A program made the position numbers and the translations under genes. Positions 4,611 through 20,934 of a DNA stretch of 64,000 nucleotides are shown piece by piece. Location of the stretch: IMG/VR virus record IMGVR_UViG_3300021962_000059, one strand, 5' to 3'. Position 1 is the stretch's first letter; every line of letters starts with the position of its first letter. The notes below the pieces were generated by a model that made no database searches, was not told the DNA's origin, and saw nothing but the letters and a program-made list of their open reading frames with translations. The stretch is from a virus.

Positions 4611-4670
4611 TAACTAAACTTTTCTAGTTATATTGTACTATAAAGTTTAGAAAGTTAGTATTTATGTACT

Positions 4671-5120
4671 CTAGAAATCTAAAAGTCTAGCAGTAGTGAT
4701 TTTAAAAGTCGCTTTTGGTCTAATAATCCCTTCAGAAGTTTTGGTGTAAGGAGTTAGGCGCGGCTGATCTAGAAAATTCCAGTAGCGAGAAGATTTAAGT
4801 CTTTCAATTACTGGCGTTAAAGATTTCTCTAGATTATATTGTTTTAAGGTAATGCAATAGTTATTTATGCCTACGGTATAGCCTAATAGGTTTTCGTGAT
4901 AGGGGTCGGGTTCCCTCTGAATAATCGCTTCGATTCCACTATTAGGCTTTATTTTATAGTTAGCGGGTAGTTCGGGAGGTTCTACCCAGATAGCGTCAAT
5001 TTCATTTAATTTTTGCCCTGTAGGGCTTGTTATTTCGTATTTACCTAAGTCAATACCGATAAGTATTTTTAAATTGTTTCTAATACCTAACAAAATATCT
5101 CTTAATTCTGATTCAGTCAT
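4671..5120 (-). CDS. Hypothetical neck/tail-completion protein
   Basis: 149 aa ORF that overlaps the gp10-like gene by 8 nt. Called by position only. Confidence 0.4.
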   Translation of the reverse strand: MTESELRDILLGIRNNLKILIGIDLGKYEITSPTGQKLNEIDAIWVEPPELPANYKIKPNSGIEAIIQREPDPYHENLLGYTVGINNYCITLKQYNLEKSLTPVIERLKSSRYWNFLDQPRLTPYTKTSEGIIRPKATFKITTARLLDF

Positions 5121-5511
5121 TTAATTTTTCCTTTAAAATTTCACTATAAGCTTCAATTGGATTATAGTCTTCTATAGCTGTGTCTATAAAAGGTCGTGCG
5201 GGAACGTCTGTCACTGTCCCGTCGTTACGCTCTATCTGGTATCCTTCATGAACAAGAGCGGCGTAATCAGCCGTATAACCGACTACTTTATAGGTATCCG
5301 AAACATCTTCGATAAATTGACTATTTTTTAACTCACCTGTATCTACAATGTCCCGGGGTGAGCCAACTACACTACCATTTTTTCGCACGGTTTCCCGTGG
5401 CCAAGGCCATTTAGTATCTTCTATCTGAAAGTTAATCTCTTGGGCAAATTCGCCCACCATTTCGTCAAAAGACTCTATGGCTAATTGTTTTCCTAAATTC
5501 CAGTTAATCAT
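5113..5511 (-). CDS. HK97 gp10-family tail-completion / head-tail adaptor protein
   Basis: C-terminal motif ALVHEGYQ...VPARPFIDTAI resembles the HK97 gp10-like family signature. Position in the neck module agrees. Confidence 0.55.
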   Translation of the reverse strand: MINWNLGKQLAIESFDEMVGEFAQEINFQIEDTKWPWPRETVRKNGSVVGSPRDIVDTGELKNSQFIEDVSDTYKVVGYTADYAALVHEGYQIERNDGTVTDVPARPFIDTAIEDYNPIEAYSEILKEKLND

Positions 5512-5567
5512 TAAAAAATAGCCGTAAAGACAACTTACAGCTATTATAACAAGTTTGAATTAGTCGC

Positions 5568-5912
5568 TTATGGACAGTCGGTATTAATCCCCATAATCTC
5601 GCAAGCTTCAAAAAATTTATCTATTCCCCCAAATGTGTCAGGAGTAAGATTCTCGTGGGTAAATAAGCATCGAAGTTCTTCAATAATGCGATCACCCCTA
5701 AGTTTTCTTTGATAATCTTCTGGAGATGCGTATAACTCCCATTTATGCCCTTTTATTGCGCGATGGGTTTTAATATTGAACTTTTTGCCGTCAACCACTA
5801 TATATTTTTGATCAACTGATTCAATAGCTCCCCATCTACAAGTTCCATCTTCATAGGGAATCACCGCCCATACTTTAACCCCTTCTTTAATCTCGAAATC
5901 TTTCGGTAACAT
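5568..5912 (-). CDS. Hypothetical protein (114 aa)
   Basis: Intact ORF on the operon strand. No motif recognised. Confidence 0.45.
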   Translation of the reverse strand: MLPKDFEIKEGVKVWAVIPYEDGTCRWGAIESVDQKYIVVDGKKFNIKTHRAIKGHKWELYASPEDYQRKLRGDRIIEELRCLFTHENLTPDTFGGIDKFFEACEIMGINTDCP

Positions 5913-5925
5913 AAGTTTCCTTAAT

Positions 5926-6207
5926 CTAAAACCCTGATTGAATATAGGTCACGACGACATCGTGAATAAACTTAATATCTGTAGTTATACTTGTTTGATC
6001 GCCATAGTCTTTATCGTTATTCTGCAAAATGACGATAAATTTATTCAATCGACAAAGATAACGTACTCCTATCTGGGAATTTTTTATTCTTGCCCAATAT
6101 CCGTCATTATTGTCAGGAGATTGATTTTGCTCAAATTCCCAAAATTCCCAAAGATAATAGGGAATATTTTTTTTGATTGTAGATTGAAACTCTTGAAATG
6201 ATAACAT
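5926..6207 (-). CDS. Hypothetical protein (93 aa)
   Basis: Intact ORF preceded by a heptamer-repeat leader. Confidence 0.4.
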   Translation of the reverse strand: MLSFQEFQSTIKKNIPYYLWEFWEFEQNQSPDNNDGYWARIKNSQIGVRYLCRLNKFIVILQNNDKDYGDQTSITTDIKFIHDVVVTYIQSGF

Positions 6208-6228
6208 AATTGCCTCTGTTGATTTGTT

Positions 6229-6250
6229 GCTGATAGCTGATAACTGATTA
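6229..6250 (-). repeat. Phased heptamer repeats (minus strand nTATCAG / CAGTTAT type)
   Basis: Minus strand reads TAATCAG TTATCAG CTATCAG between the FGE stop and the next start. Confidence 0.8.
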
Positions 6251-6254
6251 GGAA

Positions 6255-6977
6255 CTAATTGTCACAGACTACCCGGAAGCCATAGTTAAAATCTGAGACA
6301 CGGTGATGGAGACAGCCTCGGTAGCTGCAATAGCAGTTAATCACATCGTTAACCCAAGAGCCACCCCGACGCACGACAATATCTTTGTAAGATTTATTGC
6401 TAGTTTCTGTCCAAGCACTGCCATCTGTCGGCGCACCGTCATAGCTATCGTGCCAAGTATCAGCGCACCACTCCCAAACATTACCAATCATGTCATATAA
6501 TCCCCAATTGTTAGGCCGTTTTAATCCTACAGGATGAGTTCTTTCCTGAGAATTTCTGTAATACTAAGCGTAGTCTCCTAACTCATTAGCATCATTGCCA
6601 TAATAAAAGCGAGTAGTAGTCCCTGCCCGACAAGCATACTCCCATTCGGCTTCCGTCGGTAGGCGATAGGTTTTGCCGGTTATTTGACTTAATTTCTGAC
6701 AAAAAGCTTGAGCATCGTTCCAACTAACATTTTCTACCGGATTTTGAGGATTATTTGAAAAATGAGAGGGATTTATTCCCATTACTGCTTCATATTGTGC
6801 CTGAGTCACTGGATATTTTCCAATCGCAAAACTTATAAGGTAAACCTTGTTGCAAGGTTTTTCATCTTTGGGATGGTTGCAATCTAAAGACAAAGTACCC
6901 ATCAAAAAGTTTCCTGTTGGCACGATTATCATTTCTAATGCGACCTGATTAGGCAAGGTTTCAGTAAATTGGTTCAT
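6255..6977 (-). pseudogene. FGE-sulfatase (SUMF1/EgtB-like) domain gene interrupted by one in-frame TAG
   Basis: ORFs 6564..6977 and 6255..6491 share one frame. Joined, they read ...NDANELGDYA[TAG]YYRNSQERTHPVGLKRPNNWGLYDMIGNVWEWC...RGGSW...GFRVV. The TAG (6564-6566) sits where family members have Trp (AWY). Confidence 0.7.
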
Positions 6978-7007
6978 TTCTTACTCCTAAGTGTTTTGTT
7001 TTTGACG

Positions 7008-7046
7008 GATGATAGCTGATAACTGATAACTGACTACTGATTACTG
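7008..7046 (-). repeat. Phased heptamer repeat leader
   Basis: Minus strand reads CAGTAAT CAGTAGT CAGTTAT CAGTTAT CAGCTAT CATCCGT CAAAAAC AAAACAC TTAGGAG, then ATG at 6977. Confidence 0.85.
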
Positions 7047-7048
7047 TT

Positions 7049-7324
7049 TCACCAAATTACTGAAAAGATAGACGGGATTAATAGCCTAAGTGGACAAATA
7101 ACACCGTTACTTTTAAACTGAATAACGTTACACTGCCTCATCCACTCAATATGATAGTAGTAGTAATGACCGTCTCCGTCTTTCTCTTTAACTATTACTG
7201 GATACTATCCAGTAATTATTTTTCTTAGCGAAGAAAAACTTAAAAGAGGTTTTTTCTCAGAAAATAACTCTTGATATTTTGCTTCGTCTATCTTAAACCG
7301 TTGGTATTCTGCTTTAGTTATCAT
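7049..7324 (-). other. 92-codon reading frame with an in-frame TAG at 7205-7207 (39 aa ORF plus a 51-codon open continuation)
   Basis: ATG 7324 has a TTAGGAG SD and encodes MITKAEYQRFKIDEAKYQELFSEKKPLLSFSSLRKIITG. After the TAG the frame continues YPVIVKEKDGDGHYYYYHIEWMRQCNVIQFKSNGVICPL... to TGA 7049-7051. Confidence 0.3.
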
Positions 7325-7350
7325 TTTGATACTCCTAAGTGATTTGTTTT

Positions 7351-7378
7351 TGATTACTGATAACTGATAACTGATTAT
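7351..7378 (-). repeat. Phased heptamer repeat leader
   Basis: Minus strand reads TTATAAT CAGTTAT CAGTTAT CAGTAAT CAAAAAC AAATCAC TTAGGAG TATCAAA ATG. Confidence 0.85.
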
Positions 7379-7521
7379 AACGCCGGATATTTGTCTAGCA
7401 CTGTTTGTGCTTCCTGATTTAAAGATTGAGCAAATAACTCAATCTCTTTGCAGAAAATTCGAGCCTTTTTAATTTCAGGTGGAGTTTGCGTTGTTTCGAT
7501 TAGTTGTTTGACGTTATCCAT
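7375..7521 (-). CDS. Small early protein (48 aa, below the ORF-track cutoff)
   Basis: ATG at 7521-7519 lies the same distance after the GAGGA SD of cassette 1 as in the other cassettes. Encodes MDNVKQLIETTQTPPEIKKARIFCKEIELFAQSLNQEAQTVLDKYPAL. Confidence 0.45.
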   Translation of the reverse strand: MDNVKQLIETTQTPPEIKKARIFCKEIELFAQSLNQEAQTVLDKYPAL

Positions 7522-7625
7522 AATCTTGTGTCCTCGTGTTTTGTTTACTTGATCCTATCTTACGATATTCTCCCAGAAATGTCAACTATCTGGGAGAATT
7601 ATTTTTCTGAACGTTTGTACTACTG
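7522..7625 (-). promoter_or_regulatory. Early promoter-operator-leader cassette 1
   Basis: -35 TTGACA (7585-7580), 17 bp spacer, -10 TAAGAT (7562-7557). Ten-bp inverted arms TTCTCCCAGA/TCTGGGAGAA (7568-7598) bracket the -35. The leader reads AAACAAAACACGAGGAC. Confidence 0.7.
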
Positions 7626-7641
7626 ATAACTGATAACTGGT
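7621..7641 (-). repeat. Phased heptamer repeats upstream of cassette 1
   Basis: Minus strand reads CCAGTTAT CAGTTAT CAGTAGT and runs into the conserved cassette 5' end AGTAGTACAAACGTTCA. Confidence 0.8.
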
Positions 7642-7643
7642 AT

Positions 7644-8699
7644 TTAACTAATCTCTATATCATTAGCATCAGCAAAATCGTTAATGTCCATAAACCAGTC
7701 TTCCCAGTCATCGGGGTCAGACAGATTGACTTTATCCATTGACCAGTGTCCTAGCTGTAAATATAGCCCTGCCTTCCACTTATCAGGATATGGATACAAC
7801 TGATTCTCTTTTTCGGTATCAGTAGGGGTGAGGATAAACTGGAGAATATCTTTCCCCCACTTGCCTTTTTTGACGCTATAGAAGCAGGATAAGGCATTAA
7901 TGAGGTCGTCGCACTCCTGCTGGTAGTCAGCAAAGTTCTCAGGGAGTGTAAATTTGGGTCGCTTTTTAGCCGTCCGTTTAGGTTTTGGTTGAGGCTCTGA
8001 TTGATTTTTTAGTTGCTTATTTTCCTGTTCTAATTCGTGGATACGAATGTGTAACTGAGTAACAGATTCGTTTAAGACTGTTATCTGATTTGTTTTTTGT
8101 TGCAGTAGATAAACCGCACATTCTAAATCGTGAACTCGTTGTTTTAGGCTGTCAATCCATGCTTCGTTGTATTCTTTACTCTGTTCTAATTCTTGATTTT
8201 TTTTCTCCAGAATTTCATTTTTTGTTTCTAGTTCCTCAACTAATTCGTTTAGGGTAGAAGCTTCGGTATTTAATCGAGGTGATTGAGGTATTAAACTAAT
8301 AGTCCAATCATCCAGTCCAGAAGACTCAGGTTCACCTAACAGTATATTGACAAGCGCAACTTGTCGTTTTTCAGAAAACGATAACTCGTCATCGGTCTTT
8401 AATTCATTTTCCTGATTTTCTGGAAGGGTGTATTCACAATCATCTAGGTAATCCCAAAGATCGTAACAATTGCGAGACTTGTAATCTTCTTGACTAAAGT
8501 TTTCTAGTGCGTCAAAAAGCTTCTGAGTGTCATAGTCAGCTAAATAAACACCTCGATTTTTAATCGTAACGTAATCGTCATTATCAGTCACTGATAATAT
8601 TCCGTGGTTCCCTTCAAAGTATCTTTGGTTAATTTGATCGAGATTGTTCTCAATACGTTTAATAATTGTCGATCTTTCGTAAAATTCGATGGAAGTCAT
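7644..8699 (-). CDS. Acidic early protein with central coiled coil (351 aa); N-domain paralogous to 8795..9331
   Basis: Start moved to ATG 8699 (MTSIEFYE...). The upstream 21 codons of the track ORF are the translated promoter cassette. Shares the motif CYDLWDYLDDCEYT. Confidence 0.6.
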   Translation of the reverse strand: MTSIEFYERSTIIKRIENNLDQINQRYFEGNHGILSVTDNDDYVTIKNRGVYLADYDTQKLFDALENFSQEDYKSRNCYDLWDYLDDCEYTLPENQENELKTDDELSFSEKRQVALVNILLGEPESSGLDDWTISLIPQSPRLNTEASTLNELVEELETKNEILEKKNQELEQSKEYNEAWIDSLKQRVHDLECAVYLLQQKTNQITVLNESVTQLHIRIHELEQENKQLKNQSEPQPKPKRTAKKRPKFTLPENFADYQQECDDLINALSCFYSVKKGKWGKDILQFILTPTDTEKENQLYPYPDKWKAGLYLQLGHWSMDKVNLSDPDDWEDWFMDINDFADANDIEIS

Positions 8700-8794
8700 G
8701 ATTTGTGTCCTCGTGTTTTGTTTGCCTAGATTTATCTTACAAGATTCTCCCATAAAAGTCAATAGATTGGGAGAATTATTTCTGAACAGGTGTA
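8700..8794 (-). promoter_or_regulatory. Early promoter-operator-leader cassette 2
   Basis: -35 TTGACT (8762-8757), 17 bp spacer, -10 TAAGAT (8739-8734). TTCTCCCA...TGGGAGAA arms and a GAGGA SD. Confidence 0.7.
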
Positions 8795-9331
8795 CTAATA
8801 TGAGTAATAAAACTCATCTACTTTTTGAGGTGTAATACCAGCATCATAAATGCGTCGGCGAATATCAATTGCGTCACCTTTGGCACTTAATCCGTAAAAT
8901 TTGCATAACTTACGAAGTTCACCCCAAGACAATTTATACAGTCGTCTTTTAAGACGACTGTAATCGTCGTCATACTCCGTTTCCTCGCTGATAGTTTGGC
9001 TGTCTTGTTTTGTAGAGTTTTCTAGAATGCCACTAACTTCTGGAGTATATTCGCAATCTCGAAGGTAATCAAAAAGATCATAGTAGCCGCCGTTGTCAAA
9101 ATCTTCATCGGTATAATTACATAAAGCATCCAAGAGCGACGGAACATGGTATTCAACCCCATCAATTGTCGCCACTAATAAATCGCTCAAGCGATTAACC
9201 GATATTTCTGAATGAAAAGTGGCACTAAAAGAATTGTTTATGATTAATTCCATGCGGGACTCAATTTCTTTAGCAAGTTCACCTACAGTGAGATCGGAGA
9301 ACAATTCATCAAACCATTTATGGTTAGCCAT
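8795..9331 (-). CDS. Early protein with a SAP-like C-terminal motif (178 aa)
   Basis: N-domain is paralogous to 7644..8699 (YYDLFDYLRDCEYT). The C-terminus LSWGELRKLCKFYGLSAKGDAIDIRRRI resembles a SAP DNA-binding motif. Confidence 0.55.
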   Translation of the reverse strand: MANHKWFDELFSDLTVGELAKEIESRMELIINNSFSATFHSEISVNRLSDLLVATIDGVEYHVPSLLDALCNYTDEDFDNGGYYDLFDYLRDCEYTPEVSGILENSTKQDSQTISEETEYDDDYSRLKRRLYKLSWGELRKLCKFYGLSAKGDAIDIRRRIYDAGITPQKVDEFYYSY

Positions 9332-9430
9332 GTTTAGTACCTCTCGTGTTTTGCTTACATTTCTAATGTATCTGATTCTCCCAATAAAGTCAATAGATTG
9401 GGTGAATTATTTTTGAACGTTTGTACTACT
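9332..9430 (-). promoter_or_regulatory. Early promoter-operator-leader cassette 3
   Basis: -35 TTGACT (9393-9388), 17 bp spacer, -10 TACATT (9370-9365). Same flanking palindrome arms and the same AGTAGTACAAACGTTCAAAAA 5' end. Confidence 0.65.
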
Positions 9431-9808
9431 ACGTCTTTGTTTGTAGCGTTGATGCTGAGATCGTTTTCTTTTGGGATCAAGTTCTCGGTGTTCCAAACAA
9501 TACCCAGAACTGTTACGGCTATTAAGTGCCGTAAACTTACCTATGGCTAGGCAAGCGACACAGTATTTAGTTTCAGGGATACTTACTTCTACAGAGAAAT
9601 TAATCCCTTTTATCTTAGGCTGTTTATCACAGATTAAAGCCACTCTTGTTAAGGCTATGCCAGATAGAGAGTAATCTTGTAATTTAATTAAGTTAGTGTC
9701 GATATTGTCGATATTGTCGATTTTTTGAACAGAAGATTTTAAAACTTCAAAATCTTCTGACTTGAGAGATAGGATTAGGATCATCGTAGTATTTATTGGT
9801 GTTAACAT
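9407..9808 (-). CDS. Hypothetical protein (133 aa)
   Basis: Intact ORF whose basic tail is encoded by the distal part of cassette 3. It has no cassette of its own, and a hairpin abuts its ATG. Confidence 0.35.
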   Translation of the reverse strand: MLTPINTTMILILSLKSEDFEVLKSSVQKIDNIDNIDTNLIKLQDYSLSGIALTRVALICDKQPKIKGINFSVEVSIPETKYCVACLAIGKFTALNSRNSSGYCLEHRELDPKRKRSQHQRYKQRRSSTNVQK

Positions 9809-9809
9809 G

Positions 9810-9831
9810 AAACGGGGAATTATCCCCGTTT
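9810..9831 (-). terminator. Hairpin AAACGGGGA-N4-TCCCCGTTT (possible terminator or attenuator)
   Basis: Perfect 9 bp stem. On the minus strand it is followed by a moderately U-rich stretch (UUUCAUGUU), and its 3' arm ends 1 nt before ATG 9808. Confidence 0.4.
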
Positions 9832-9966
9832 TGACTTACCAAATGCTGTAAAAGTGATAACCACCTTTTATGGCCTCTACGCCGCTAAAATGGGCGTTAT
9901 TGTGTTTGTAAGCGTCGTATATTTCTTTTTCCGTCGGCAACTCTAGAGACAAATCAACTAAAGCCG

Positions 9967-10221
9967 TCACACTGTACAGCGTGTCGTGGCATCCGTGGCT
10001 AAACTCCCCGCAGGAACCATAACCAGTTCCGAGACATAGATAGTGGTGTAGTCTAAAATGTCGTGGTGAATATGTCCGTGTTTTGCCTGAATAGCTTTTG
10101 CTATAAAACTAGCAATCGTGTGACTTCCCCAATGCCATCCGTGATTGCCAATATAGCCATCTTCGTAGATACGAAGTTCTTTTGCTTTAAACTTCTTAAA
10201 CCCGACTTGTTCTGTGTTCAT
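9967..10221 (-). CDS. Hypothetical protein (84 aa) with metallophosphoesterase-like motif remnants
   Basis: Motifs IGNHGWH and HGHIHH...VPAGS resemble MPP motifs III and V, but the N-terminal metal motifs are absent. Confidence 0.35.
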   Translation of the reverse strand: MNTEQVGFKKFKAKELRIYEDGYIGNHGWHWGSHTIASFIAKAIQAKHGHIHHDILDYTTIYVSELVMVPAGSLATDATTRCTV

Positions 10222-10276
10222 GGTATCCTCCTAAATAATAAATTAAATTAAGCAGTTTACTGACTTGCTTGGGTGA

Positions 10277-10630
10277 CTAAAATTTAAAAGTGATAAATTG
10301 TTCTAAGTGTTTGTTTTCCAAATCACGGAACTGTATTTGCTGTAAAGCGATATTCTCCGCTTCTTTATCAATCACAAAAGCGTTAATCATCTCGATGTCG
10401 GGAGATTTCTGATTAGCGATAACAGAAGCATAATATTCTAAATCTCCACTGATAATGTCATAGCGTTCACCAACTTTTTTATTATCAGCTTTTTTGAGGA
10501 TAACAGGGCGAATAAGTCCACCCATTTCAATAATAAGATTGGCTAAATTATCTAATTTAGTTTCGGAGAAGGTTTCTCTGGGAAGGGAAGGATTAATATC
10601 AGTAATATCAACTTGTAAAAATTTCCACAT
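10277..10630 (-). CDS. ParB N-terminal-like domain protein (117 aa)
   Basis: LDNLANLIIEMGGLIRPVILKK...YDIISGDLEYYASVIA resembles the ParB/Srx fold core. The catalytic GxRR motif is not seen. Confidence 0.4.
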   Translation of the reverse strand: MWKFLQVDITDINPSLPRETFSETKLDNLANLIIEMGGLIRPVILKKADNKKVGERYDIISGDLEYYASVIANQKSPDIEMINAFVIDKEAENIALQQIQFRDLENKHLEQFITFKF

Positions 10631-10724
10631 TTATTTAACTCCTGAAATTGTGTGTCTAGACTTATCTTACAATATTCTCCCAAAAATGTCAACTATTTGG
10701 GAGAATTATTTTTGAACGTTTGTA
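10631..10724 (-). promoter_or_regulatory. Early promoter-operator-leader cassette 4
   Basis: -35 TTGACA (10692-10687), 17 bp spacer, -10 TAAGAT (10669-10664). TTCTCCCAAA...TTTGGGAGAA arms and an AGGAG SD. Confidence 0.7.
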
Positions 10725-11528
10725 CTATTCAACGTTAAGCTCTTCTACAAGTTTGACGTATTCCTCGTACGTCGCTGAAAACCAATTGTCTCCAGCCATT
10801 TTTTCGACAAGATAGCAAGCATAAAGGGGCATTCCAGATTCTCGCATTTTTTTTGCAAGAGACCAAATCAGGCACGCCATGTCATTGTCGTCATCACCTA
10901 AAAACTTATCTCCGTCAAACCAGTCAGGAAACATTGGCTTAACTAATGCAATTTGTTCGGCTGTTACAACAGGCAGTTGAATTACATTTGATTTATTTTT
11001 AACTTCAGGTGTAGTTACTGTTGTAATTGCAGGTTTAGCGTTAACAGGCAATTGAATTACATTTGATTTATTTTCAGATTCGGATGCAGTTACTAGATCA
11101 GACAAAGCGGTATCAACCACGGGTTTATTGATAATTTCTGGACTTTTTAATCGAGAGTCCTTTTTCTGCTCATAATATCCGTCAGGAAGTATACTAAAAT
11201 ACTCATTGTCGGCAATTTTTGCAGTAATCTTCCAATCGTCCCCAGACATTTCTTTTATCTCTTGTAAATTAGATCTATAATCGGCATTCTCTACTTGAAT
11301 TACTGTATTGTTAGGATCGACGTAATCAATGTATCCTTTGTAATTATGATACTTTTTAGCAACTGCTTTAACTTCTGACATGGTATAGGAAGAACCGACT
11401 ATAGCTGCAACAGTAACAATGATCAACGAACCTGTTTTAGATTTGCCCATTCTGCAAGTCTTTACAGAAAACTTTAATTCTGGGAATGTTTGAGATAGTT
11501 CTTTTTTGAGTTGGTGTGATTTAGCCAT
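10725..11528 (-). CDS. Early protein (267 aa); N-domain paralogous to 11627..12454
   Basis: Shares QLKKELSQTFPELKFSVKT...YTMSEVKAVAKKYHNY with its neighbour. Contains the internal repeat NKSNVIQLPV twice. Confidence 0.6.
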   Translation of the reverse strand: MAKSHQLKKELSQTFPELKFSVKTCRMGKSKTGSLIIVTVAAIVGSSYTMSEVKAVAKKYHNYKGYIDYVDPNNTVIQVENADYRSNLQEIKEMSGDDWKITAKIADNEYFSILPDGYYEQKKDSRLKSPEIINKPVVDTALSDLVTASESENKSNVIQLPVNAKPAITTVTTPEVKNKSNVIQLPVVTAEQIALVKPMFPDWFDGDKFLGDDDNDMACLIWSLAKKMRESGMPLYACYLVEKMAGDNWFSATYEEYVKLVEELNVE

Positions 11529-11626
11529 GGTTTGTGTCCTCGTGTGTTTTGTTTGTCTAGATTTATCTTACGATATTCTCCCAATAAAGTCAAGTATATG
11601 GGAGAATCTTTTTTTGAACAGGTGTA
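11529..11626 (-). promoter_or_regulatory. Early promoter-operator-leader cassette 5
   Basis: -35 TTGACT (11593-11588), 17 bp spacer, -10 TAAGAT (11570-11565). Palindrome arms and a GAGGA SD. Confidence 0.7.
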
Positions 11627-12454
11627 CTAGGCGGCTAAAAGGATAGAACCGATGTACTCACAGACAGAATGAACCTTAGAAGTTTGGTTTTGTTTTAAAT
11701 TCTTAATTGTTTTTGCGCGTCTATATTGATTGTAGTAATCGTTAATGTCTGGTATCTCAAAAGAGAGATTTAACGCTAGTTCGCCAGTTTCGGACTTAAG
11801 GACTATTTGTTTGTCGGTAATCTCAATTTGAGCGTCCTTAAATTTAGACTCAAGGAATTTGATTGTTGTTTTTTCTGGTTTTTTACAAAACTCGTCTTTT
11901 TTAATCACGGGAGCATCAACTGATTTTAATTGGCTGATTTCCTTCTTAACTTCTACTGGTTTCTTTTGAATTGGTTCTGATTGTTCAATACCTGATTCTA
12001 TTTTTAAGATTTCTAAAACTAATTTAGCTTTATTCCGATTACCTTTGGTAATCGATAATTGGGCATTTAGGCGAGTTAGTTTAATCTGTAGTTTAGCTAT
12101 TTTGTTTTGCGGGGTAACTTCTTTGACTGTTCTAACTACAGTGTTATCGATGGCTTCTTCTTTGGTTTCTTGAATTGTTTCAATTACAGGGTTATCAATT
12201 TCTTCTTTGGTTTCTTCATCAGCATTGACAATAACATTAGTGTCACCAGTAACTGTTTGCCAATCCCAGTTGTGATATTTATTAGTGATTTCTTTTATCT
12301 CCGCTATTGTATAATCAGAATCTTTTAATCCTTTGATAGTTACTGCAATTTCAGTAATATTACCTTTACAAACCATTTTGGTTTTTACAGAAAACTTCAG
12401 TCCCGAAAATGCTTGAGTTAATTCCTTTTTTAATTCTTGTCCTTTGGTAGTCAT
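11627..12454 (-). CDS. Early protein (275 aa), paralogue of 10725..11528
   Basis: Has the conserved N-terminal ~65 aa. The remainder is Lys/Glu-rich. Confidence 0.6.
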   Translation of the reverse strand: MTTKGQELKKELTQAFSGLKFSVKTKMVCKGNITEIAVTIKGLKDSDYTIAEIKEITNKYHNWDWQTVTGDTNVIVNADEETKEEIDNPVIETIQETKEEAIDNTVVRTVKEVTPQNKIAKLQIKLTRLNAQLSITKGNRNKAKLVLEILKIESGIEQSEPIQKKPVEVKKEISQLKSVDAPVIKKDEFCKKPEKTTIKFLESKFKDAQIEITDKQIVLKSETGELALNLSFEIPDINDYYNQYRRAKTIKNLKQNQTSKVHSVCEYIGSILLAA

Positions 12455-12553
12455 TGTCTTGATCCTTGCGTGTTTTGCTTACATTTTTATTATGGATCGT
12501 TCTCCCAATAAAGTCAACTATCTGGGATAATCTTTTTTGAACGTTTGTACTAA
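12455..12553 (-). promoter_or_regulatory. Early promoter-operator-leader cassette 6
   Basis: -35 TTGACT (12518-12513), 17 bp spacer, -10 CATAAT (12495-12490). Palindrome arms TTCTCCCAAT.../...TGGGATAA. Confidence 0.65.
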
Positions 12554-12571
12554 GTATATTTACTCGTTATC

Positions 12572-13010
12572 ATTGTAGATAGATTGTAGATAGGGTGATC
12601 GACAACCGAAACCGTTACCCCGTAAAGGTTCTAGACTTTGTAGATAATGTCAATGCACTATAGAGGAAAAAAGAAGAAAGATAGAACAATAAACCAGACT
12701 GGACAATAAAAAACCGCAAGAGATAAACAAAGTCAACAGTAAAGCTGTTAGTTTGTATCTCGATTGTAGATAAGGTTATCTACAATCGAAAACCTTACAG
12801 GGTATAGGTTTCGAGGTTTGTTTATCTTGTCGATACTCTATACAGGGAAGAGAAAAGATAGAGAGAGATAAACGAACTGGACAATAAGAAAAGGATAAAA
12901 AATCTTGGCACGGGAAAATAGATCAACAATATAAACAAAGTCTAGAATCTATATATATCAATGCTTTTCAATGTTGATCACCTTATCTACAATCTATTTA
13001 CAAACCAACA
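12572..13010. repeat. Left iteron array (about two ~190 bp units, TTGTAGATA/TATCTACAA 9-mers, AT-rich TATATATA block)
   Basis: Units starting at 12572 and 12762 align at roughly 70 percent by eye. A 12 bp-arm palindrome GATTGTAGATAA-GG-TTATCTACAATC lies at 12762-12787. The array is an inverted copy of 23822-24445. Confidence 0.8.
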
Positions 13011-13019
13011 AACTATAAA

Positions 13020-13041
13020 CCCCCTATGAGTCCATAGGGGG
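13020..13041. terminator. Bidirectional hairpin terminator CCCCCTATG-N4-CATAGGGGG
   Basis: 9 bp GC-rich stem flanked by AAA on one side and TTTAT on the other. It lies 22 bp past the stop of 13063..13767. Confidence 0.6.
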
Positions 13042-13062
13042 TTTATATGGGTTTAGGTATTT

Positions 13063-13767
13063 TTACCGTTTTTTATCGTTCCGCATAAGCATTCGACCGC
13101 CTCGCCATCCCCGTGCTTTTTCCCGTTCGGTTTCGAGTAGGTTGAATTTGGCTATGTCTCGCTCTTTTTCGGCGTGTAGCTCTTCGATAACCAGACGCTT
13201 ATAGTCAATCATTGAGTTTTTACTGCTAAAGTCAGCGATCATAGTCTTTTGAGTTTTGATCAACTCCTCTAGTATTTGCTTTTCTTCGCTTAGTTTGACG
13301 ATTTGGCTCTCAAGTTGCCTTACTTCTGTAATTGCCTCGCTCTTGACGCGAAAACCAGCTAAGGTGTGAAGGAATAATCGGACTCCTAACTTAAGCACTT
13401 GAGAGGTTAACTCAGGATTATCCTTTGGCAACCACTTACAGATTAGGTCTTCTGGGATTAAATAAACCCCTTGCAACCCGCCCTCTGTTTGAATTTGAGC
13501 CTGCTTTAGTAATCCTAAGCCTAACCCTTTTGTGTTACCCCCTTGTAATCCGCTCCCTGCCTGAATTTGAGGGTGATTTGGAGATTCAGAAGTTACCCCC
13601 TTGCCATCTTCTTTAGACAGCCGGTTTAATCGCATAATGATGGCGTTGTGACTTTTCCCAGACATCCGTGCGTATCCCTTGATCGATGCGAAGCTTTCAC
13701 CAGTCTGGGTATCGATTATCAGTTCAATACCATCTTGATCAAATCGTTGTAAACTAGAAACAGCCAT
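13063..13767 (-). CDS. DNA-binding protein A: N-domain shared with 22537..23217, C-terminal coiled coil
   Basis: SSLQRFDQDGIELIIDTQTGESFASIKGYARMSGKSHNAIIMRL is near-identical to the N-terminus of 22537..23217 and looks KilA-N/Bro-N-like. The C-terminus is heptad-rich. Confidence 0.55.
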   Translation of the reverse strand: MAVSSLQRFDQDGIELIIDTQTGESFASIKGYARMSGKSHNAIIMRLNRLSKEDGKGVTSESPNHPQIQAGSGLQGGNTKGLGLGLLKQAQIQTEGGLQGVYLIPEDLICKWLPKDNPELTSQVLKLGVRLFLHTLAGFRVKSEAITEVRQLESQIVKLSEEKQILEELIKTQKTMIADFSSKNSMIDYKRLVIEELHAEKERDIAKFNLLETEREKARGWRGGRMLMRNDKKR

Positions 13768-13850
13768 ATTGACTCCTTATTAGTCTTATTGGTTAGTCCC
13801 TCGCGTCAACGAGGGCATATTAGTATTGTACCACTTTAAATAATTAATTA

Positions 13851-13882
13851 TTCCCCAATACAGAATTTTCTGTATTGGGGAA
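13851..13882. promoter_or_regulatory. Operator palindrome TTCCCCAATACAGAA-TT-TTCTGTATTGGGGAA
   Basis: Perfect 15 bp arms. It lies just upstream of the extended -10 TGGTACAAT of gene A. The core AATACAGAAnnTTCTGTATT recurs at 62623-62642. Confidence 0.6.
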
Positions 13883-14009
13883 TCTGGACACAGAAAAAAC
13901 GAGAATCAGGAAACCTATTAACAAAGATAACAAACTAATAAAACCTATATATATCAATACTTTTCACTGTCAATACCCTTGCTAACAATCTGGTAACAAT
14001 ATTAACTAA

Positions 14010-14037
14010 AAACCCGTCAATCAGTTGACGGGTTTTT
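14010..14037. terminator. Bidirectional terminator ACCCGTCAA-N4-TTGACGGGT
   Basis: 9 bp stem flanked by an A5 run and a T5 run. It lies directly 3' of 14040..14285. Confidence 0.65.
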
Positions 14038-14039
14038 AG

Positions 14040-14285
14040 TTAATTAAATTTTTCGTATTCTCTTAATATTATTTGGGTTGCCTCCTCGATTTGTTTTCCT
14101 TTTGATAGTAAGTTGAGAATTTTAGCTAGAACTTGCCTGACTCGTTCTTTACCTATTCCTAATTCTGCTGTAGTTGATGCCACTTTAAAGCGATAGTTCC
14201 GATGCCGGGAAGTGACAGGCACTGGGTCAAGATTGTTGTTTTTAGCCCACACCAGATAGATGTAAGCTTGTCTAGGAGTAATCAA
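14040..14285 (-). CDS. Small HTH protein resembling sigma-70 region 4 (81 aa)
   Basis: TAELGIGKERVRQVLAKILNLL matches the region 4.2 HTH pattern. Confidence 0.45.
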   Translation of the reverse strand: MITPRQAYIYLVWAKNNNLDPVPVTSRHRNYRFKVASTTAELGIGKERVRQVLAKILNLLSKGKQIEEATQIILREYEKFN

Positions 14286-14306
14286 AGTAATTGTCCTTTT
14301 AAAAGT

Positions 14307-14684
14307 TTAGGCATAAAAAACACCATCAGGATCATTTTCGTCAACTACTTCGCCGTCCTCGTTGTACAGTAATTTTACTTTTTCTGGCTTAAAATAAGCA
14401 ATTTTGAATTGTTCCGAAAGTATCTTGATTAAATCTTTAACTTCAGACTGTATCCCGTATTTAAAGCCAAAATAACCACCTTTAAATTCTTCGCCAATTT
14501 TCTTAATAGAAAAATAGCCTTCGCTGCCATTAAAGTAAACACGAATCTCGTCAGGTTTTTTGTCCCAAACACTAGCTTTTACAAAGCAACAAGCTTGCGA
14601 ATGCCACTCCGATCCTTTTGATTGGTTCCAGAGAGTTTGGAGTTTTTGTGCAAACTCTAGTCCTGAAATTAACTTTGCATCCAT
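14307..14684 (-). CDS. Hypothetical protein (125 aa)
   Basis: Intact ORF with an AAACAAAACAC-type leader and an AAGGA SD. Confidence 0.5.
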   Translation of the reverse strand: MDAKLISGLEFAQKLQTLWNQSKGSEWHSQACCFVKASVWDKKPDEIRVYFNGSEGYFSIKKIGEEFKGGYFGFKYGIQSEVKDLIKILSEQFKIAYFKPEKVKLLYNEDGEVVDENDPDGVFYA

Positions 14685-14757
14685 TTGATTTGTCCTTTTG
14701 TGTGTTTTGTTTATATTTTTATAGTAGATCGATTTTCTTGATAGGTGTTGGTCAAGT

Positions 14758-14787
14758 GTGACAGTTTATCAAGTGACACTGCGGGTA
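14758..14787. repeat. 30 bp direct repeat, copy 1 (GTGACAGTTTATCAAGTGACACTGCGGGTA)
   Basis: 27 of 30 positions match 15075-15104. The two copies bracket the structured region upstream of terS. Confidence 0.8.
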
Positions 14788-14804
14788 TCATTGAAAATAC
14801 TTTA

Positions 14805-15022
14805 AAACTATAATCCCAATGCTTTATTAGCATTGGGATTATAGAGAACCACTAGACCAAGTGCGTGCATTAGCTATCTACTATTTCAAGATAGTTACTG
14901 GACTTACACCAGCAAGCTTAGAACGACTTGTTAACCAGTCTCACTAGCCGACTACTATTTCAAATCGGTTGCTGATCTACCCAGTAGCTTATGGAGTCTC
15001 TAATTAATGGATGCACTCGGTT
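14805..15022 (-). ncRNA. Candidate structured ncRNA (~220 nt) antisense-upstream of terS
   Basis: A 16-position closing helix (15022-15007 with 14880-14865) has 14 pairs, including one G.U that exists only on the minus strand. Two hairpins share the loop UUGAAAUAGUAG. The 3' end is a 16 bp hairpin followed by UUUUAAAGUAUUUUC. The promoter is weak or unclear. Confidence 0.4.
14808..14844 (-). terminator. Perfect 16 bp hairpin CTATAATCCCAATGCT-TTATT-AGCATTGGGATTATAG
   Basis: A U-run follows it only on the minus strand. Confidence 0.55.
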
Positions 15023-15074
15023 TACTGTCCATATTCTAAATATATCATGATAATTTTCAGATAGTTGGCGAAGA

Positions 15075-15104
15075 GTGACGGTTTATCAAGTGTCACTGCG
15101 TGTA
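15075..15104. repeat. 30 bp direct repeat, copy 2 (GTGACGGTTTATCAAGTGTCACTGCGTGTA)
   Basis: Second copy of 14758-14787. Contains the inverted pair GTGAC-N12-GTCAC. Candidate pac or TerS-binding site. Confidence 0.8.
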
Positions 15105-15339
15105 CTTTTGTACTGGACTGATTGAATATCCGATTTATTACTGATTTTCAGTATATTTGGTTGTTTTACGTTCGTTCTCGTTGATTATTGATACTGAGAA
15201 TATTGTTAAGCATTTTTAACTATCATAAAGGTTTTTTCCTTTAGAACAATTTAATTTTGTCGGTTTATTTTTTGGTTGCACGGCACAAAAGCTGTCATTT
15301 TGGCATAATATTGATTAATCGAGATTATATCTTAATTTA

Positions 15340-16029
15340 ATGCCAAGACGAAAAAAAGCATCACCAAATAACTCAACCTCGACACCTAAAAGTCCTGTGT
15401 CAGGCAAAGTTAGTCGGTTTGATAATCTAATACCAAACTCACCTATCGAGTTTGGTCACTATCCTATCTGGGAAAGACAGCCTTGCGAAATGTCTCAATG
15501 GTTTGAAAAATTTCAAGCTTTTTACATTCATCTTCCTGCGGGGTACAGAACATTAAATCGTGCTTTCAATGATTGCGCTACGTCGGCAGGCGAGGAGATT
15601 CCAAAGACTGAAAGTAAGCGCAATATTACCGCACCAGAACAATGGCAATTAGCTTATAAAATGTATCGATGGGAGGATCGAGCTAAGGCGTATTGGCTTA
15701 AAAAGATACAAGATCAAGAGGCTTATAGAAATGAAATCCTAAACCAAATAATAGATAAAAGCATAAAGAATGCTTTTAAAACACTCGAAAAAAGCGAGGA
15801 GATAAACAATCGTTCACTGGACGATCCTAACGGCAATTGGAGTCATAAAGACGCTGTAATTATGACTAAAGCTGTCACTGAAATAGTAGAAAAAGCATTA
15901 GGGCTTGACACTGTAGAATATGCTATTAGTATTTTACAAAAAAATGGGTTAAAAGCAATTGATCCTGACGGGAACTTAATAGGACAGCCAACAGATAAGG
16001 GTAATTCAGAAGATGAAACTATCTTATAA
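15340..16029 (+). CDS. terS: Terminase small subunit
   Basis: Basic N-terminus. The segment FEKFQAFYIHLPAGYRTLNRAF...WQLAYKMYRWEDRAKAYW resembles a common TerS HTH/W-R-A motif. It overlaps terL by 17 nt. Confidence 0.6.
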   Translation: MPRRKKASPNNSTSTPKSPVSGKVSRFDNLIPNSPIEFGHYPIWERQPCEMSQWFEKFQAFYIHLPAGYRTLNRAFNDCATSAGEEIPKTESKRNITAPEQWQLAYKMYRWEDRAKAYWLKKIQDQEAYRNEILNQIIDKSIKNAFKTLEKSEEINNRSLDDPNGNWSHKDAVIMTKAVTEIVEKALGLDTVEYAISILQKNGLKAIDPDGNLIGQPTDKGNSEDETIL

Positions 16030-19938: not shown

Positions 19939-19968
19939 ATTACTAACTGATAACTGGTAACTGATTAC
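19939..19968 (-). repeat. Phased heptamer repeat leader
   Basis: Minus strand reads TCAGTTA CCAGTTA TCAGTTA GTAATCC ... ATG 19920. Confidence 0.85.
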
Positions 19969-20462: not shown

Positions 20463-20482
20463 AATTTTTACTCCTAATTTTT

Positions 20483-20518: not shown

Positions 20519-20519
20519 A

Positions 20520-20858: not shown

Positions 20859-20880
20859 GATTTTAGTCTCCTAAATAATT

Positions 20881-20932: not shown

Positions 20933-20934
20933 AT

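Follow-up and report, generated by a model that had tools for sequence, protein, structure and literature searches.

Six homologous promoter cassettes of an uncultured cyanophage combine PeSL-type anatomy with a putative operator

The analysed window is a 64,000-nt stretch of viral DNA (IMG/VR record IMGVR_UViG_3300021962_000059), in which every long open reading frame (ORF) between positions 1 and 15,000 has minus-strand orientation. Directly 5' of a start codon each lie six homologous cassettes, which are 97-101 nt long from an upstream box to the base preceding the ATG (Table 1). The genes that they head are small accessory genes, i.e. LPD29-like, ParB_N-only and ORFan genes, which follow the order 17-23-14-12-0-1 in terms of gene clusters. 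Gene 2 is an N-terminal paralogue of gene 1, genes 4 and 5 have a 'YDLxDYLxDCEYT' module in common, and the product of gX combines a CxxC...CxxH motif, which is conserved, with a basic tail. Gene 5, which is internally mosaic, is the most widespread gene of such arrays, and gene 6 is where the series of cassette-headed genes ends in most related arrays. The notion of one gene per cassette, put forward in a previous sequence-only reading of this DNA, does not hold strictly: C3 heads an operon of three ORFs, and at least five further minus-strand genes (7325 down to 5568) follow C6 without a cassette. A canonical intrinsic terminator closes the unit upstream of the array, and the early transcription region, into which all six promoters feed, probably has its 3' end at a second one. 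The TAG of the box is at the same time the stop codon of gene 1 in C2, of gene 2 in C3 and of the upstream gene in C5, and gX stops at a TAA within the A-tract of C4.

Table 1 Cassettes, genes and terminators in and around the array (positions refer to the window; SD, Shine-Dalgarno sequence).
Feature	Position	Strand	Details
C1, first of array	12455..12552	-	box 12538-12552; inverted repeat 12500-12530; -35 TTGACT 12512-12517; -10 CATAAT 12489-12494; leader and SD, then ATG 12454
C2	11529..11629	-	box 11615-11629, TAGTACACCTGTTCA; inverted repeat 11576-11606; -35 TTGACT 11588-11593; -10 TAAGAT 11565-11570; ATG 11528
C3	10631..10727	-	box 10713-10727; inverted repeat 10675-10705; -35 TTGACA 10687-10692; -10 TAAGAT 10664-10669; ATG 10630
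C4	9332..9428	-	box 9414-9428; inverted repeat 9376-9406; -35 TTGACT 9388-9393; -10 TACATT 9365-9370; ATG 9331
C5	8700..8797	-	box 8783-8797, TAGTACACCTGTTCA; inverted repeat 8745-8775; -35 TTGACT 8757-8762; -10 TAAGAT 8734-8739; ATG 8699
C6	7522..7622	-	box 7608-7622; inverted repeat 7568-7598; -35 TTGACA 7580-7585; -10 TAAGAT 7557-7562; ATG 7521
Gene 1	11627..12454	-	275 aa; weak LPD29 N-terminal domain (polyvalent-protein-associated)
Gene 2	10725..11528	-	267 aa; LPD29 N-terminal domain at Pfam threshold
C3 operon	9407..10630	-	117-, 84- and 133-aa ORFs
ParB_N-only protein, C3 operon	10277-10630	-	117 aa
84-aa ORF, C3 operon	9967-10221	-	DNA 81-86% identical to Ma-LMM01-type Microcystis phages
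gX, C3 operon	9407-9808	-	133-aa ORF; likely start M9 at 9784
Gene 4	8795..9331	-	178 aa; ORFan
Gene 5	7644..8699	-	351 aa; ATG 8699; cluster 0
Gene 6	7375..7521	-	48 aa; cluster 1
Canonical intrinsic terminator	13014..13047	-	15-bp stem, 4-nt loop, T-rich tail
Canonical intrinsic terminator	5517..5545	-	12-bp stem, TTTTTAATGAT tail

The core pattern TTCTCCCA-N5-TTGAC-N5-TGGGAGAA, allowing up to three mismatches, matched six sites in the 64 kb, all of which are the cassettes; shuffled sequence gave no match and the chance expectation is 0. The cassettes thus lie at the places claimed in the sequence-only reading and nowhere else in the window. Its term near-identical is too strong, since pairwise identity within the 58-nt core amounts to 62-86%, i.e. 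the copies are homologous; the alignment of the six has 48 invariant columns and a mean column identity of 76%. The left arm of the inverted repeat is imperfect in C1 (TTATCCCA) and C4 (TTCACCCA), the arms reach 10-11 bp in C3 and C6, and the leader of C3 (ACACACAATTTCAGGAG) departs from the other five.

Each cassette contains a -35 element TTGAC[A/T], a spacer of exactly 17 bp and a -10 element, which is TAAGAT in four copies and CATAAT or TACATT in the others, in agreement with the geometry originally described. A window-wide scan for consensus promoters identified 44 sites compared to 37.6 ± 6.2 in shuffled sequences, which is no excess, and therefore the case for the promoter is based on conservation and not on consensus matching. 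One pattern retrieved 103 IMG/VR stretches, and in total 242 cassettes, of which 138 are distinct, were collected from 107 loci on uncultured viral contigs, the window included. Most of them were retrieved by patterns that fixed TTGAC together with the box or with the right arm and the left-arm CCCA core, and the conservation of these fixed parts is partly due to ascertainment, a bias that a protein-anchored set lowers but does not remove. Spacer length and -10 sequence, which were not imposed by the searches, are nevertheless constrained: the spacer is 17 bp in every distinct cassette, and the -10 conforms to YAnnAT, with A2 and T6 in 138/138 and an A at position 5 in 132/138. The interior of the -10 varies freely, with three to four alleles, and A2 and T6 are common to the variants TAAGAT, TAATAT, CACAAT, CATAAT, TACTAT and TACAAT. 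Furthermore, 114 of 117 distinct copies have the -35 pointing forward with respect to the leader, and one family cassette lacking the right arm still has TTGACA-17-CATTAT. Taking the start site about 7 nt past the -10, an A-tract that is invariant on the sense strand occupies about -56 to -49, which is the position of an UP element, and the leader of ~30 nt is CA-rich and unstructured and contains a GAGG/AGGAG Shine-Dalgarno sequence ahead of the ATG. From this comparison of sequences we conclude that the promoter elements are under purifying selection, and a promoter of the type read by the host primary sigma factor (sigma-70/SigA) is strongly supported; the 138 family cassettes likewise bear out the proposed sigma-70-type promoter with its Shine-Dalgarno leader. 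Judging from promoter type and gene content, the cassette-headed genes would be early genes.

The inverted repeat TTCTCCCA-N15-TGGGAGAA (8-N15-8) is centred on the -35, with its arms at about -48 to -41 and -25 to -18. Across the family, there is hardly any variation at the 16 arm positions and very little covariation, with at least 16 uncompensated arm variants versus one compensated variant at ~24% divergence between cassettes; cassettes of one genome are only ~76% alike, which equals the likeness between genomes. In phage phi29, a dimer of p4 binds AACTTTTT-15 bp-AAAATGTT, overlapping the -35 of A2c and of A2b, which are early promoters, and these sites mediate early shut-off of strong early promoters (PMC1904284, PMC3100819). 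Arms of 8 bp placed 15 bp apart over the -35 therefore have an exact geometric precedent, although the arms described here contain G/C instead of A-tracts, the four phi29 sites belong to a single control region and not to one gene each, and binding is known for p4, whereas the site in the cassettes is predicted. Conserved arm sequences that show hardly any covariation, together with the geometry shared with the p4 operators, lead us to favour a protein operator, and we give the assignment of the repeat as a putative operator an even chance of being correct. A dimeric or tetrameric protein, probably phage-encoded, would clamp the two arms and deny sigma region 4 access to the -35, which would result in a joint shut-off of all units. 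The palindrome as a switch for a dimeric regulator, as first suggested, is thus plausible in view of arm conservation and precedent, but no binding protein is linked to it and a hairpin offers an alternative. Likewise, the earlier statement that no candidate regulator can be assigned was too pessimistic insofar as two Cro/CI-type HTH proteins and one PadR protein are encoded in the window, and gX in the array itself; it was correct insofar as none of them is tied to the site. We found no link of the HTH, PadR or Cys/His candidates to the inverted repeat, no half-sites of the palindrome near regulator genes and no p4-like protein among the window ORFs scanned.

Alternatively, the repeat could function as a stem-loop in nucleic acid and not as a protein site. 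A 9-11-bp hairpin in read-through RNA from the upstream cassette would attenuate transcription, or protect the upstream message at its 3' end, and insulate each unit, which we regard as possible but rather unlikely. The predicted RNA hairpins of the six cassettes range from -7.8 to -17.2 kcal/mol; two have z below -3 relative to shuffles, but the other four (z -0.9 to -2.0) are no more stable than these. For the PeSL (promoter-early stem-loop) cassettes of the T4-type myoviruses RB49/phi1, PST and nt-1, a hairpin role of this kind has been proposed and demonstrated in part: their stem-loops cover the -10 or occupy the interval from -35 to -10, and reporter tests revealed terminator or attenuator activity (Arbiol et al. 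2010, PMC2839356; Comeau et al. 2014, PMC4122927). In class B, a second class of cassettes from sibling phages, another inverted repeat encloses the -10, which recalls this variable placement, and the box is lacking. Pairing is further hinted at by a single arm variant that is doubly compensated (TTAACCCA/TGGGTTAA) and whose uncompensated intermediate also occurs, and by a predominance of wobble-compatible transitions, the commonest variants TTTTCCCA, TGGGGGAA and TTCTCTCA being G-U compatible on the sense strand. In lineages with a decayed promoter (TTGATA, TAAGAC), the arms are still nearly intact. However, the loops of 11-15 nt and the missing U-tract after the stem differ from the 4-5-nt loops and T-rich tails of the phage's own terminators, and the near-invariance of the arms argues for recognition of sequence by a protein. 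On the plus strand, the hairpin is followed by TTATTTTT, and the cassettes might double as terminators of antisense transcription into the early region, which we consider highly improbable. The T-rich plus-strand sequence past the stem (TTATTTTTGAACG) and the invariance of the sense-strand A-tract would fit, but an UP element explains the A-tract equally well, the terminator scan, for which loops of this length are too long, called none, and the minus-strand orientation of the surrounding ORFs leaves no evident antisense source.

The upstream box TAGTACA-N3-GYTCA is a 14-15-bp dyad centred near -64; it reads exactly TAGTACAAACGTTCA in four cassettes and TAGTACACCTGTTCA, with three mismatches, in C2 and C5. 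It may represent a second protein site, for which host LexA is the only concrete, albeit weak, candidate. LexA bound at this position would either repress alpha-CTD/UP contacts or act as a class-I-type activator, tying early phage transcription to the SOS/cell-cycle state of the host; we consider this doubtful. The box resembles the cyanobacterial LexA box RGTACNNNDGTWCB or AGTACWNWTGTACT (Mazon et al. 2004, as cited in Li et al. 2010, PMC3091678) in being a 14-bp dyad in which AGTAC (left) and GTTC (right) flank a variable centre of 4 nt; to this LexA box, C2 and C5 match at 13/14 positions. Its conservation is dyad-like with constant halves and a variable centre, though the search patterns fixed GTAC and the right-half G-Y-T. 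A weight matrix built from 48 published LexA sites ranked C2 and C5 5th-6th (13.3 bits) and the other four cassettes 27th-30th (8.9 bits) of ~128,000 window positions, but with a probability of ~0.05 a 100-nt cassette contains a 14-mer of 8.9 bits or more by chance. A stronger box (14.4-14.9 bits) is located at another promoter-like site (36012-36025), and an activator role has been proposed for Microcystis LexA (Honda 2018, as cited in PMC6950475). On the other hand, 64 of the 138 family boxes (46%) have GCTC where LexA boxes have GTWC, a base absent there in all 48 training sites, and the final position, for which the consensus calls for B, is an A throughout. In addition, the box lies upstream of the core promoter and not over it, the two LexA boxes predicted in Microcystis itself look different (CATACT..TGTACT), and class B cassettes do without a box. 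The LexA-like dyad form of the box had been absent from the sequence-only reading.

Comparison of the family loci revealed extensive shuffling. Array gene orders vary by contig (e.g. 2-3-0-1, 2-5-0-1, 2-3-13-0-1 and 2-2-5-13-0-1), and between two of the loci a 566-nt gene-plus-cassette unit is inserted exactly from cassette to cassette (L012 vs L006). Cassettes hold 12-26% of the ends of homology blocks versus 4.5% of the sequence, and the stop codon of the upstream gene is located inside the cassette or at most 25 nt away in most cases. Judged by their sequences, the cassettes are recombinant mosaics, with 106 different box/loop/-10 combinations among 137 distinct cassettes and one chimera, in which a class A and a class B cassette are joined at TTGAC. 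From these comparisons we conclude that the cassettes are joints where gene units get inserted, deleted, duplicated and replaced between related phages. The arms, and perhaps the box, could even serve mainly for DNA recombination, as crossover or cruciform sites similar to integrons or PeSL mini-circles, with the promoter overlap being incidental. Besides the junctions and mosaics, one copy with an inverted segment between the arms (L338), the presence of gene-plus-cassette units in other phage lineages and the formation of mini-circles by recombination between flanking PeSL copies (PMC2839356; PMC4122927) are in line with this. It is nonetheless quite improbable: similarity suffices for homologous recombination and an inverted repeat is not needed, no integrase or recombinase was present among the ORFs scanned (about half of those in the window), and the arms keep strictly to one distance from the -35, which suggests a tie to transcription.

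By sequence comparison, the cassette is of PeSL-type anatomy (early promoter, stem-loop, Shine-Dalgarno sequence) in an unrelated, CL131-like cyanophage, whose large terminase is closest to that of the Aphanizomenon siphophage CL131 (40% amino acid identity). Both systems have an AT-rich tract upstream of a sigma-70 early promoter that is consensus-like, an inverted repeat lying within the core promoter and a Shine-Dalgarno sequence at the 3' end; in both, one module precedes each small ORFan gene of a hyperplastic region, and indel and replacement junctions between relatives fall in the modules. They differ in phage lineage and cyanobacterial host, in the fixed, sequence-conserved 8-N15-8 arms bracketing the -35 as opposed to G/C-tract stems of variable position, and in the additional conserved dyad box; moreover, stem-loop and mini-circle activity has been shown for PeSLs, whereas the cassettes are known from sequence. 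The sequence-only reading is partly supported overall: promoter and leader are supported and the operator is plausible, but calling an own promoter for each gene unusual was overstated, since the published PeSLs of T4-type phages likewise provide each small gene with one strong early promoter (PMC2839356; PMC4122927).

Taken together, the six elements are probably composite early-expression cassettes of a lytic-type uncultured cyanophage, uniting promoter, inverted repeat, dyad box and leader, and PeSL-like shuffling sites. The host is probably Microcystis, whose RNA polymerase would fire all six promoters immediately on DNA entry, with transcripts presumably running on to the downstream terminator. 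The early promoters of T4 and the terminal-redundancy early operons of SPO1 are multi-promoter host-takeover regions of large lytic phages, which similarly contain many strong promoters for host RNA polymerase, each for one or a few small, often anti-host early genes, but whose promoters are not known to lie within a conserved inverted repeat or to have a conserved upstream box. To our knowledge, promoters as recombination joints have been documented only for PeSLs. That the cassette occurs family-wide and forms the recombination joints of a hyperplastic gene region had escaped the sequence-only reading.

Between 7522 and 12552, read on the minus strand, the window carries six homologous intergenic modules of 97-101 nt each (cassettes C1 to C6), whose 3' ends abut the ATGs of the genes that follow. 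Scanning the window revealed no seventh site: the core pattern TTCTCCCA-N5-TTGAC-N5-TGGGAGAA, with up to three mismatches, matches these six sites only in 64 kb and none in shuffled sequences. The MAFFT alignment comprises 48 invariant columns at a mean column identity of 76%, and among the promoter-like sites in 2500-15500 the cassettes make up three of the best four. The six promoter-operator-leader cassettes proposed in the sequence-only reading are present at the six ATGs, with the hexamers and the 17-bp spacer exactly as described there. From this we conclude that the observation stands, with four corrections: the copies are not near-identical, the identity of the 58-nt core being only 62-86%; the left arm has a single mismatch in C1 and in C4; the leader of C3 is unlike the others; and C3 lies upstream of three ORFs instead of a single one. 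Genes without a cassette follow C6 down to 5568.

Coordinates of the features of the window that are discussed in the text
Feature	Position	Strand	Remark
Cassette C1	12455-12552	minus	ATG at 12454
Cassette C2	11529-11629	minus	ATG at 11528
Cassette C3	10631-10727	minus	ATG at 10630
Cassette C4	9332-9428	minus	ATG at 9331
Cassette C5	8700-8797	minus	ATG at 8699
Cassette C6	7522-7622	minus	ATG at 7521
Gene 1	11627-12454	minus	behind C1
gX	9407-9808	minus	133-aa ORF in C3 operon
Gene 5	7644-8699	minus	ORF cluster 0
Canonical terminator	13014-13047		directly ahead of the non-coding DNA that precedes C1
Canonical terminator	5517-5545		other boundary of the cassette region
ProQ C-terminal-like protein	5568-5912		last gene ahead of the downstream terminator
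FGE-sulfatase-like gene	6255-6491, 6564-6977		apparently split in two ORFs
Large terminase ORF	16013-18889		958 aa
Ma-LMM01/MaMV-like DNA patches	10121-10279, 55328-56673, 59037-59346		81-93% identical
Small paralogous genes	53218-57982	minus	in tandem
LexA-like box	36012-36025		in divergent intergenic region 35960-36025
LexA-like dyad	11645-11658		in 3' end of gene 1
CAGTTAT runs	6229-6261, 7001-7058, 7342-7385, 7619-7647, 19943-19971, 20470-20527, 20878-20935, 21226-21269, 39809-39837, 63787-63851	minus	2-4 units
160-180-nt repeat units (approximate length)	12561-13003, 13924-13999, 23824-24431
HTH_3 gene	23328-23624		adjoins one set of 10-2-10 palindromes
Direct repeats	23737-23815		just after terminator

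In IMG/VR, the pattern CCCA-N5-TTGAC-N5-TGGGAGAA matched 103 stretches, with as many as six copies on a single contig, and together with a second, palindrome-independent scan we obtained 242 cassettes at 107 loci including the window (138 distinct cassettes). The positions counted as informative are those left free by the search patterns. The -35 and -10 elements are 17 bp apart in all 138 distinct copies, and within the -10 element A2 and T6 are present in 138/138 and A5 in 132/138, with three alleles each at positions 3 and 4; variants such as TAAGAT, TAATAT, CACAAT, CATAAT, TACTAT, TACAAT and others keep A2 and T6 throughout. In sigma-70 holoenzymes, these two bases are the ones that are flipped out and read by sigma region 2. 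The promoter pattern is TTGAC[A/T]-17-YAnnAT with an A-tract at about -56 to -49, and the AAA at -19 to -17 relative to TTGAC is invariant. The -35 is oriented forward relative to the leader in 114 of 117 distinct copies, and one cassette with a replaced right arm retains TTGACA-17-CATTAT. Since a plain consensus promoter scan did not give more sites than shuffles, the promoter reading rests on conservation, by which the cassettes are well supported as putative sigma-70-type promoters; the earlier proposal of a promoter with leader is likewise supported.

The inverted repeat, TTCTCCCA-N15-TGGGAGAA, has arms of 8-11 bp around the -35 and is centred on the G of TTGAC. Protein p4 of phage phi29 binds AACTTTTT-15 bp-AAAATGTT as a dimer, and it helps to shut off the early promoters A2c and A2b, whose -35 elements overlap with p4 sites 1 and 3 (PMC1904284, PMC3100819). 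With 8-bp arms, a 15-bp gap and an overlapped -35, the p4 operator is an exact geometric precedent for the cassettes. About a quarter of the core positions differ between cassettes, many sites being multi-allelic, yet the 16 arm positions are almost invariant; among the arm variants, at least 16 are uncompensated versus one that is compensated. The near-invariant arms and the scarce compensation fit a read-out of the repeat as sequence, with the caveat that most copies were retrieved with the right arm fixed.

The repeat could instead work as a hairpin. The RNA hairpins predicted for the six cassettes range from -7.8 to -17.2 kcal/mol, but a clear advantage over shuffles is seen for no more than two of them. 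The loops measure 11-15 nt and are not followed by a sense-strand U-tract, whereas the terminators of this phage combine loops of 4-5 nt with T-rich tails. The single doubly compensated arm variant (TTAACCCA/TGGGTTAA, of which the uncompensated intermediate was also found) and the G-U-compatible transitions, which form the majority of the arm variants, favour a hairpin, against which stand the near-invariance of the arms and the much larger number of uncompensated variants. A stem-loop also has a precedent in the PeSL (promoter-early stem-loop) cassettes of T4-type phages, and a second, differently placed repeat occurs in another cassette class of the relatives. The arms show too little variation for covariation to favour or exclude structure. 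Weighing arm invariance and the p4 precedent against the PeSL precedent and the compensated variant, we regard a protein operator as a plausible candidate with a roughly even chance of being correct, a reasonable but unproven reading with good precedent, and a hairpin as rather unlikely. Three further structures were rejected. Intrinsic (Rho-independent) terminators have a G+C-rich stem, a short loop (3-8 nt) and a U-tract directly after the stem; the terminator scan called none of the six cassettes, in which the loop measures 11-15 nt and the sense-strand tail reads UAUCGUAAGAU. In a single-strand (Frpo-like) promoter the -35 would fall in the loop, and for an RNase III site the stems are too short.

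A p4-like (N-hook) regulator gave no Pfam match among the roughly 40 ORFs scanned, and no palindrome half-sites were found near regulator genes. Scanning host genomes for the palindrome yielded, among the matches listed, scattered chance matches in unrelated bacteria and a mis-binned phage contig (L200). The DNA-binding candidates elsewhere in the window, two HTH_3 proteins (19096-19374 and 23328-23624) and a PadR protein (22169-22462), are not linked to the site. Judged by its sequence features, gX is a candidate regulator: it is conserved in 56 of 106 related loci, its stop lies inside C4, and it combines an invariant CxxC...CxxH pattern with a basic tail. Its homologues occur only within this phage group; it had no sequence match in the PDB, and its AlphaFold model is poor (pLDDT 66.7; best fold match E 0.14).

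Upstream of the core promoter lies a further conserved element, the box TAGTACAAACGTTCA, which is perfect in four of the six cassettes and replaced by TAGTACACCTGTTCA in C2 and C5. In the 138 copies it reads AGTACA, followed by two free bases, a third that is T or C, and G-[T/C]-TCA, where GTAC and the G-Y-T of the right half were fixed by the box search patterns themselves. The scan keyed on box and TTGAC, which is independent of the palindrome, retrieved no family-like cassette without the repeat, and box and repeat can therefore not be separated. A conserved stop codon does not explain the box, because its TAG serves as the stop of the upstream ORF in only 9 of 141 contexts. The cyanobacterial LexA box is RGTACNNNDGTWCB (Mazon et al. 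2004, as quoted in PMC3091678). C2 and C5 match this consensus at 13 of 14 positions and the other four cassettes at 12, and a weight matrix built from 48 published sites ranks C2 and C5 at 5-6 and the others at 27-30 of about 128,000 window positions, with 13.3 bits for C2 and C5 where the training sites have a median of 15.9; however, GCTC is present in 64 of 138 family boxes and in no training site, the last base never fits the consensus, and the predicted boxes of Microcystis itself look different. A site for host LexA is kept as a lead that we consider quite unlikely; the most apt description of the box is a second conserved dyad site to which no partner is assigned. If transcription starts 7 nt past the -10, the centre of the box is near -64, upstream of the A-tract, a position better suited to a factor in contact with the alpha subunit than to a repressor of the classical occluding type. 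The best LexA-box match in the window (AGTACAAATGTTCG, 14.4-14.9 bits) overlaps the likely ATG of a plus-strand gene, 3' of TTGTCA-17-TAAGAT, in a divergent intergenic region next to several small minus-strand ORFs in a row. Another LexA-like dyad (AGTACATCGGTTCT, 12.7 bits) is located 30 nt upstream of the C2 box, so that C2 has two boxes, three helical turns apart.

Sibling contigs (loci L096, L297, L299, L321 and others) carry a class B cassette, TTGACATAYAAACATATACCTGT-CATTAT-AGGTATAT, in which the -10 lies between the arms of an inverted repeat; this class is absent from the window, and a GGGGTTTAA...TTAAACCCC hairpin often precedes it. A chimera (L103:1327, minus strand) joins the upstream half of class A, the type found in the window, to the downstream half of class B at TTGAC. 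In other phage lineages (L323-L332, L337-L339; e.g. the 107-kb IMGVR_UViG_3300008120_000018), which were retrieved via homology to gene 5 and not via the cassette sequence, the gene 5 homologue has a decayed cassette without box, with the left arm TTCTCTCA, the -35 TTGATA and the -10 TAAGAC; the 15 nt between the arms are inverted in L338, and the right arm is partly deleted in L337.

When the ORFs following each cassette were clustered, the arrays proved to be mosaics on a common frame, with cluster orders such as 2-3-0-1, 2-5-0-1, 2-3-13-0-1, 2-2-5-13-0-1, 2-11-0-0-7-6 and 20-21-14-15-0, and 17-23-14-12-0-1 in the window. The junctions of insertions, deletions and replacements between related genomes fall in cassettes, which corresponds to modular shuffling. 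Relative to L006, locus L012 has an extra unit of 566 nt made up of one gene and one cassette, homology being lost at +19 of one cassette and regained at the -35 of the next; in replacements the break lies at about +47, within the leader. Internal ends of long homology blocks lie inside cassettes in 12-26% of cases, versus the 4.5% of sequence that cassettes occupy; redundancy among contigs inflates the counts of block ends. The stop codon of the upstream ORF is inside the cassette or at most 25 nt away in most of 141 contexts. The cassettes are themselves recombinants: box centre, loop and -10 occur in 106 combinations among 137 distinct copies, and one gene can stand behind differing variants from genome to genome. 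Intragenomic homogenisation was rejected, as cassette identity is 0.762 within and 0.764 between contigs; what the cassettes share is therefore maintained by selection within a common pool and not by recent copying inside a genome. Integron gene cassettes are promoterless, end in an imperfect attC hairpin and lie next to a tyrosine-recombinase integrase, whereas each unit here comes with a promoter; the ORFs scanned, which represent part of the window's ORFs, included no integrase.

The window belongs to a tailed phage encoding a large terminase, ribonucleotide reductase, helicases and tail genes, and the same array, with identical gene order, is on record in run SRR7130820. The terminase is closest to that of the Aphanizomenon siphophage vB_AphaS-CL131 (40% amino acid identity). 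The host is probably Microcystis, because a few short stretches of DNA share 81-93% identity with Ma-LMM01/MaMV-type Microcystis myoviruses; these stretches also point to gene exchange among unrelated phages of presumably the same host. Searched against 50,697 deposited phage records, cassette DNA gave only 35-nt chance matches and none of these records carries the cassette; Rfam identified a tRNA-Met only in the whole window. PeSLs unite a strong early promoter, sigma-70-like and preceded by an AT-rich tract, with an embedded stem-loop, an SD and the ATG; they flank ORFans in hyperplastic regions of T4-type phages and mediate modular shuffling (PMC2839356, PMC4122927). The cassettes resemble them in the sigma-70-like -35 and -10 elements with an AT-rich upstream tract, the stem-loop-forming inverted repeat in the core promoter, the mostly ORFan genes they head, the nearby upstream stop codons and the junctions lying within them, but the phage carrying them is not a T4-type myovirus. 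Given the CL131-like terminase and the absence of cassette DNA from the deposited phages, we file them as a PeSL-kind element in a new lineage and not as PeSL homologues. The earlier view that one promoter per early gene is unusual fails, since the published PeSL arrangement is alike; the finding is real and richer than could be seen from the window's sequence, yet of a known kind. The new aspects are the CL131-like cyanophage lineage, the fixed 8-N15-8 repeat that encloses the -35, and an additional dyad box; moreover, the large set of natural variants allows the questions to be tested directly.

It is plausible that the six promoters supply a transcription region of about 7 kb, bounded by two terminators. 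The array genes are small and accessory, comprising two weak-LPD29 paralogues, a ParB_N-only protein and ORFans with shuffled internal modules. In a joint reading, which we regard as very unlikely to hold in full, early genes would stand behind a portable two-input switch and be exchanged in an integrase-free, integron-like manner, the regulatory unit itself being mobile. Through the LexA-like dyad at about -64, as a host-factor site, the phage would sense the DNA-damage or cell-cycle state of the host, the phi29-p4-like clamp site around the -35 would let a single phage protein silence the whole set, and the stop-to-ATG module would be the crossover point where Microcystis phages of differing lineages swap ready-to-express anti-host genes. 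If the main reading, that of PeSL-kind early-promoter cassettes, is right, PeSL-style promoter-plus-gene modules are not peculiar to T4-like coliphages but would be a convergent solution in an unrelated cyanophage lineage of freshwater blooms, and the cassettes flag the first-expressed phage genes (LPD29-like, ParB_N-only and ORFan proteins, likely with host-takeover or anti-defence functions) and their movement between phages. The roughly 240 natural variants would then provide cyanobacterial synthetic biology with a useful, ready mutational series for a strong promoter of the cyanobacterial SigA type together with its leader, and the 8-N15-8 site and the LexA-like box could lead to the early-to-late switch of a bloom-relevant phage group.

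Several other features of the window were noted. The ProQ C-terminal-like protein, in the presumed early region, is a possible RNA chaperone. The FGE-sulfatase-like gene seems to be split into one ORF of 137 aa, which matches a PHROG annotated 'kinase', and another of 78 aa, and several tandem copies of this segment occur in related contigs. The N-terminal ~470 aa of the large terminase ORF match primase, DnaC-like and 'DarB-like' profiles, and the protein is either a fusion of an unusual kind or a TerL that bears an intein or an extension. About a dozen small paralogous genes (110-160 aa) with repeat families of up to 95% identity (D1, D2, D8, D11, D15-D17) form a second hyperplastic region without class A cassettes. 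CAGTTAT heptamer runs, including variants, lie just 5' of the SD of many cassette-less minus-strand genes and, in one case, directly 5' of the C6 box; this second class of intergenic element recalls the heptamer repeats of cyanobacteria. The larger repeat units, each about 160-180 nt long, comprise a CT-rich tract, a CTATAAAGCATCGACA-like sequence, a hairpin of the form GAAACC...GGTTTC and the 10-2-10 palindrome TTGTAGATAAGGTTATCTACAA; two copies are oriented toward C1 and others toward a plus-strand operon starting at 24690. The 10-2-10 palindromes look like Cro/CI-type operators. Finally, TAATGTTCGGAGCTT occurs four times as a direct repeat with a spacing of 19-21 nt, an iteron-like arrangement that may mark a replication origin.
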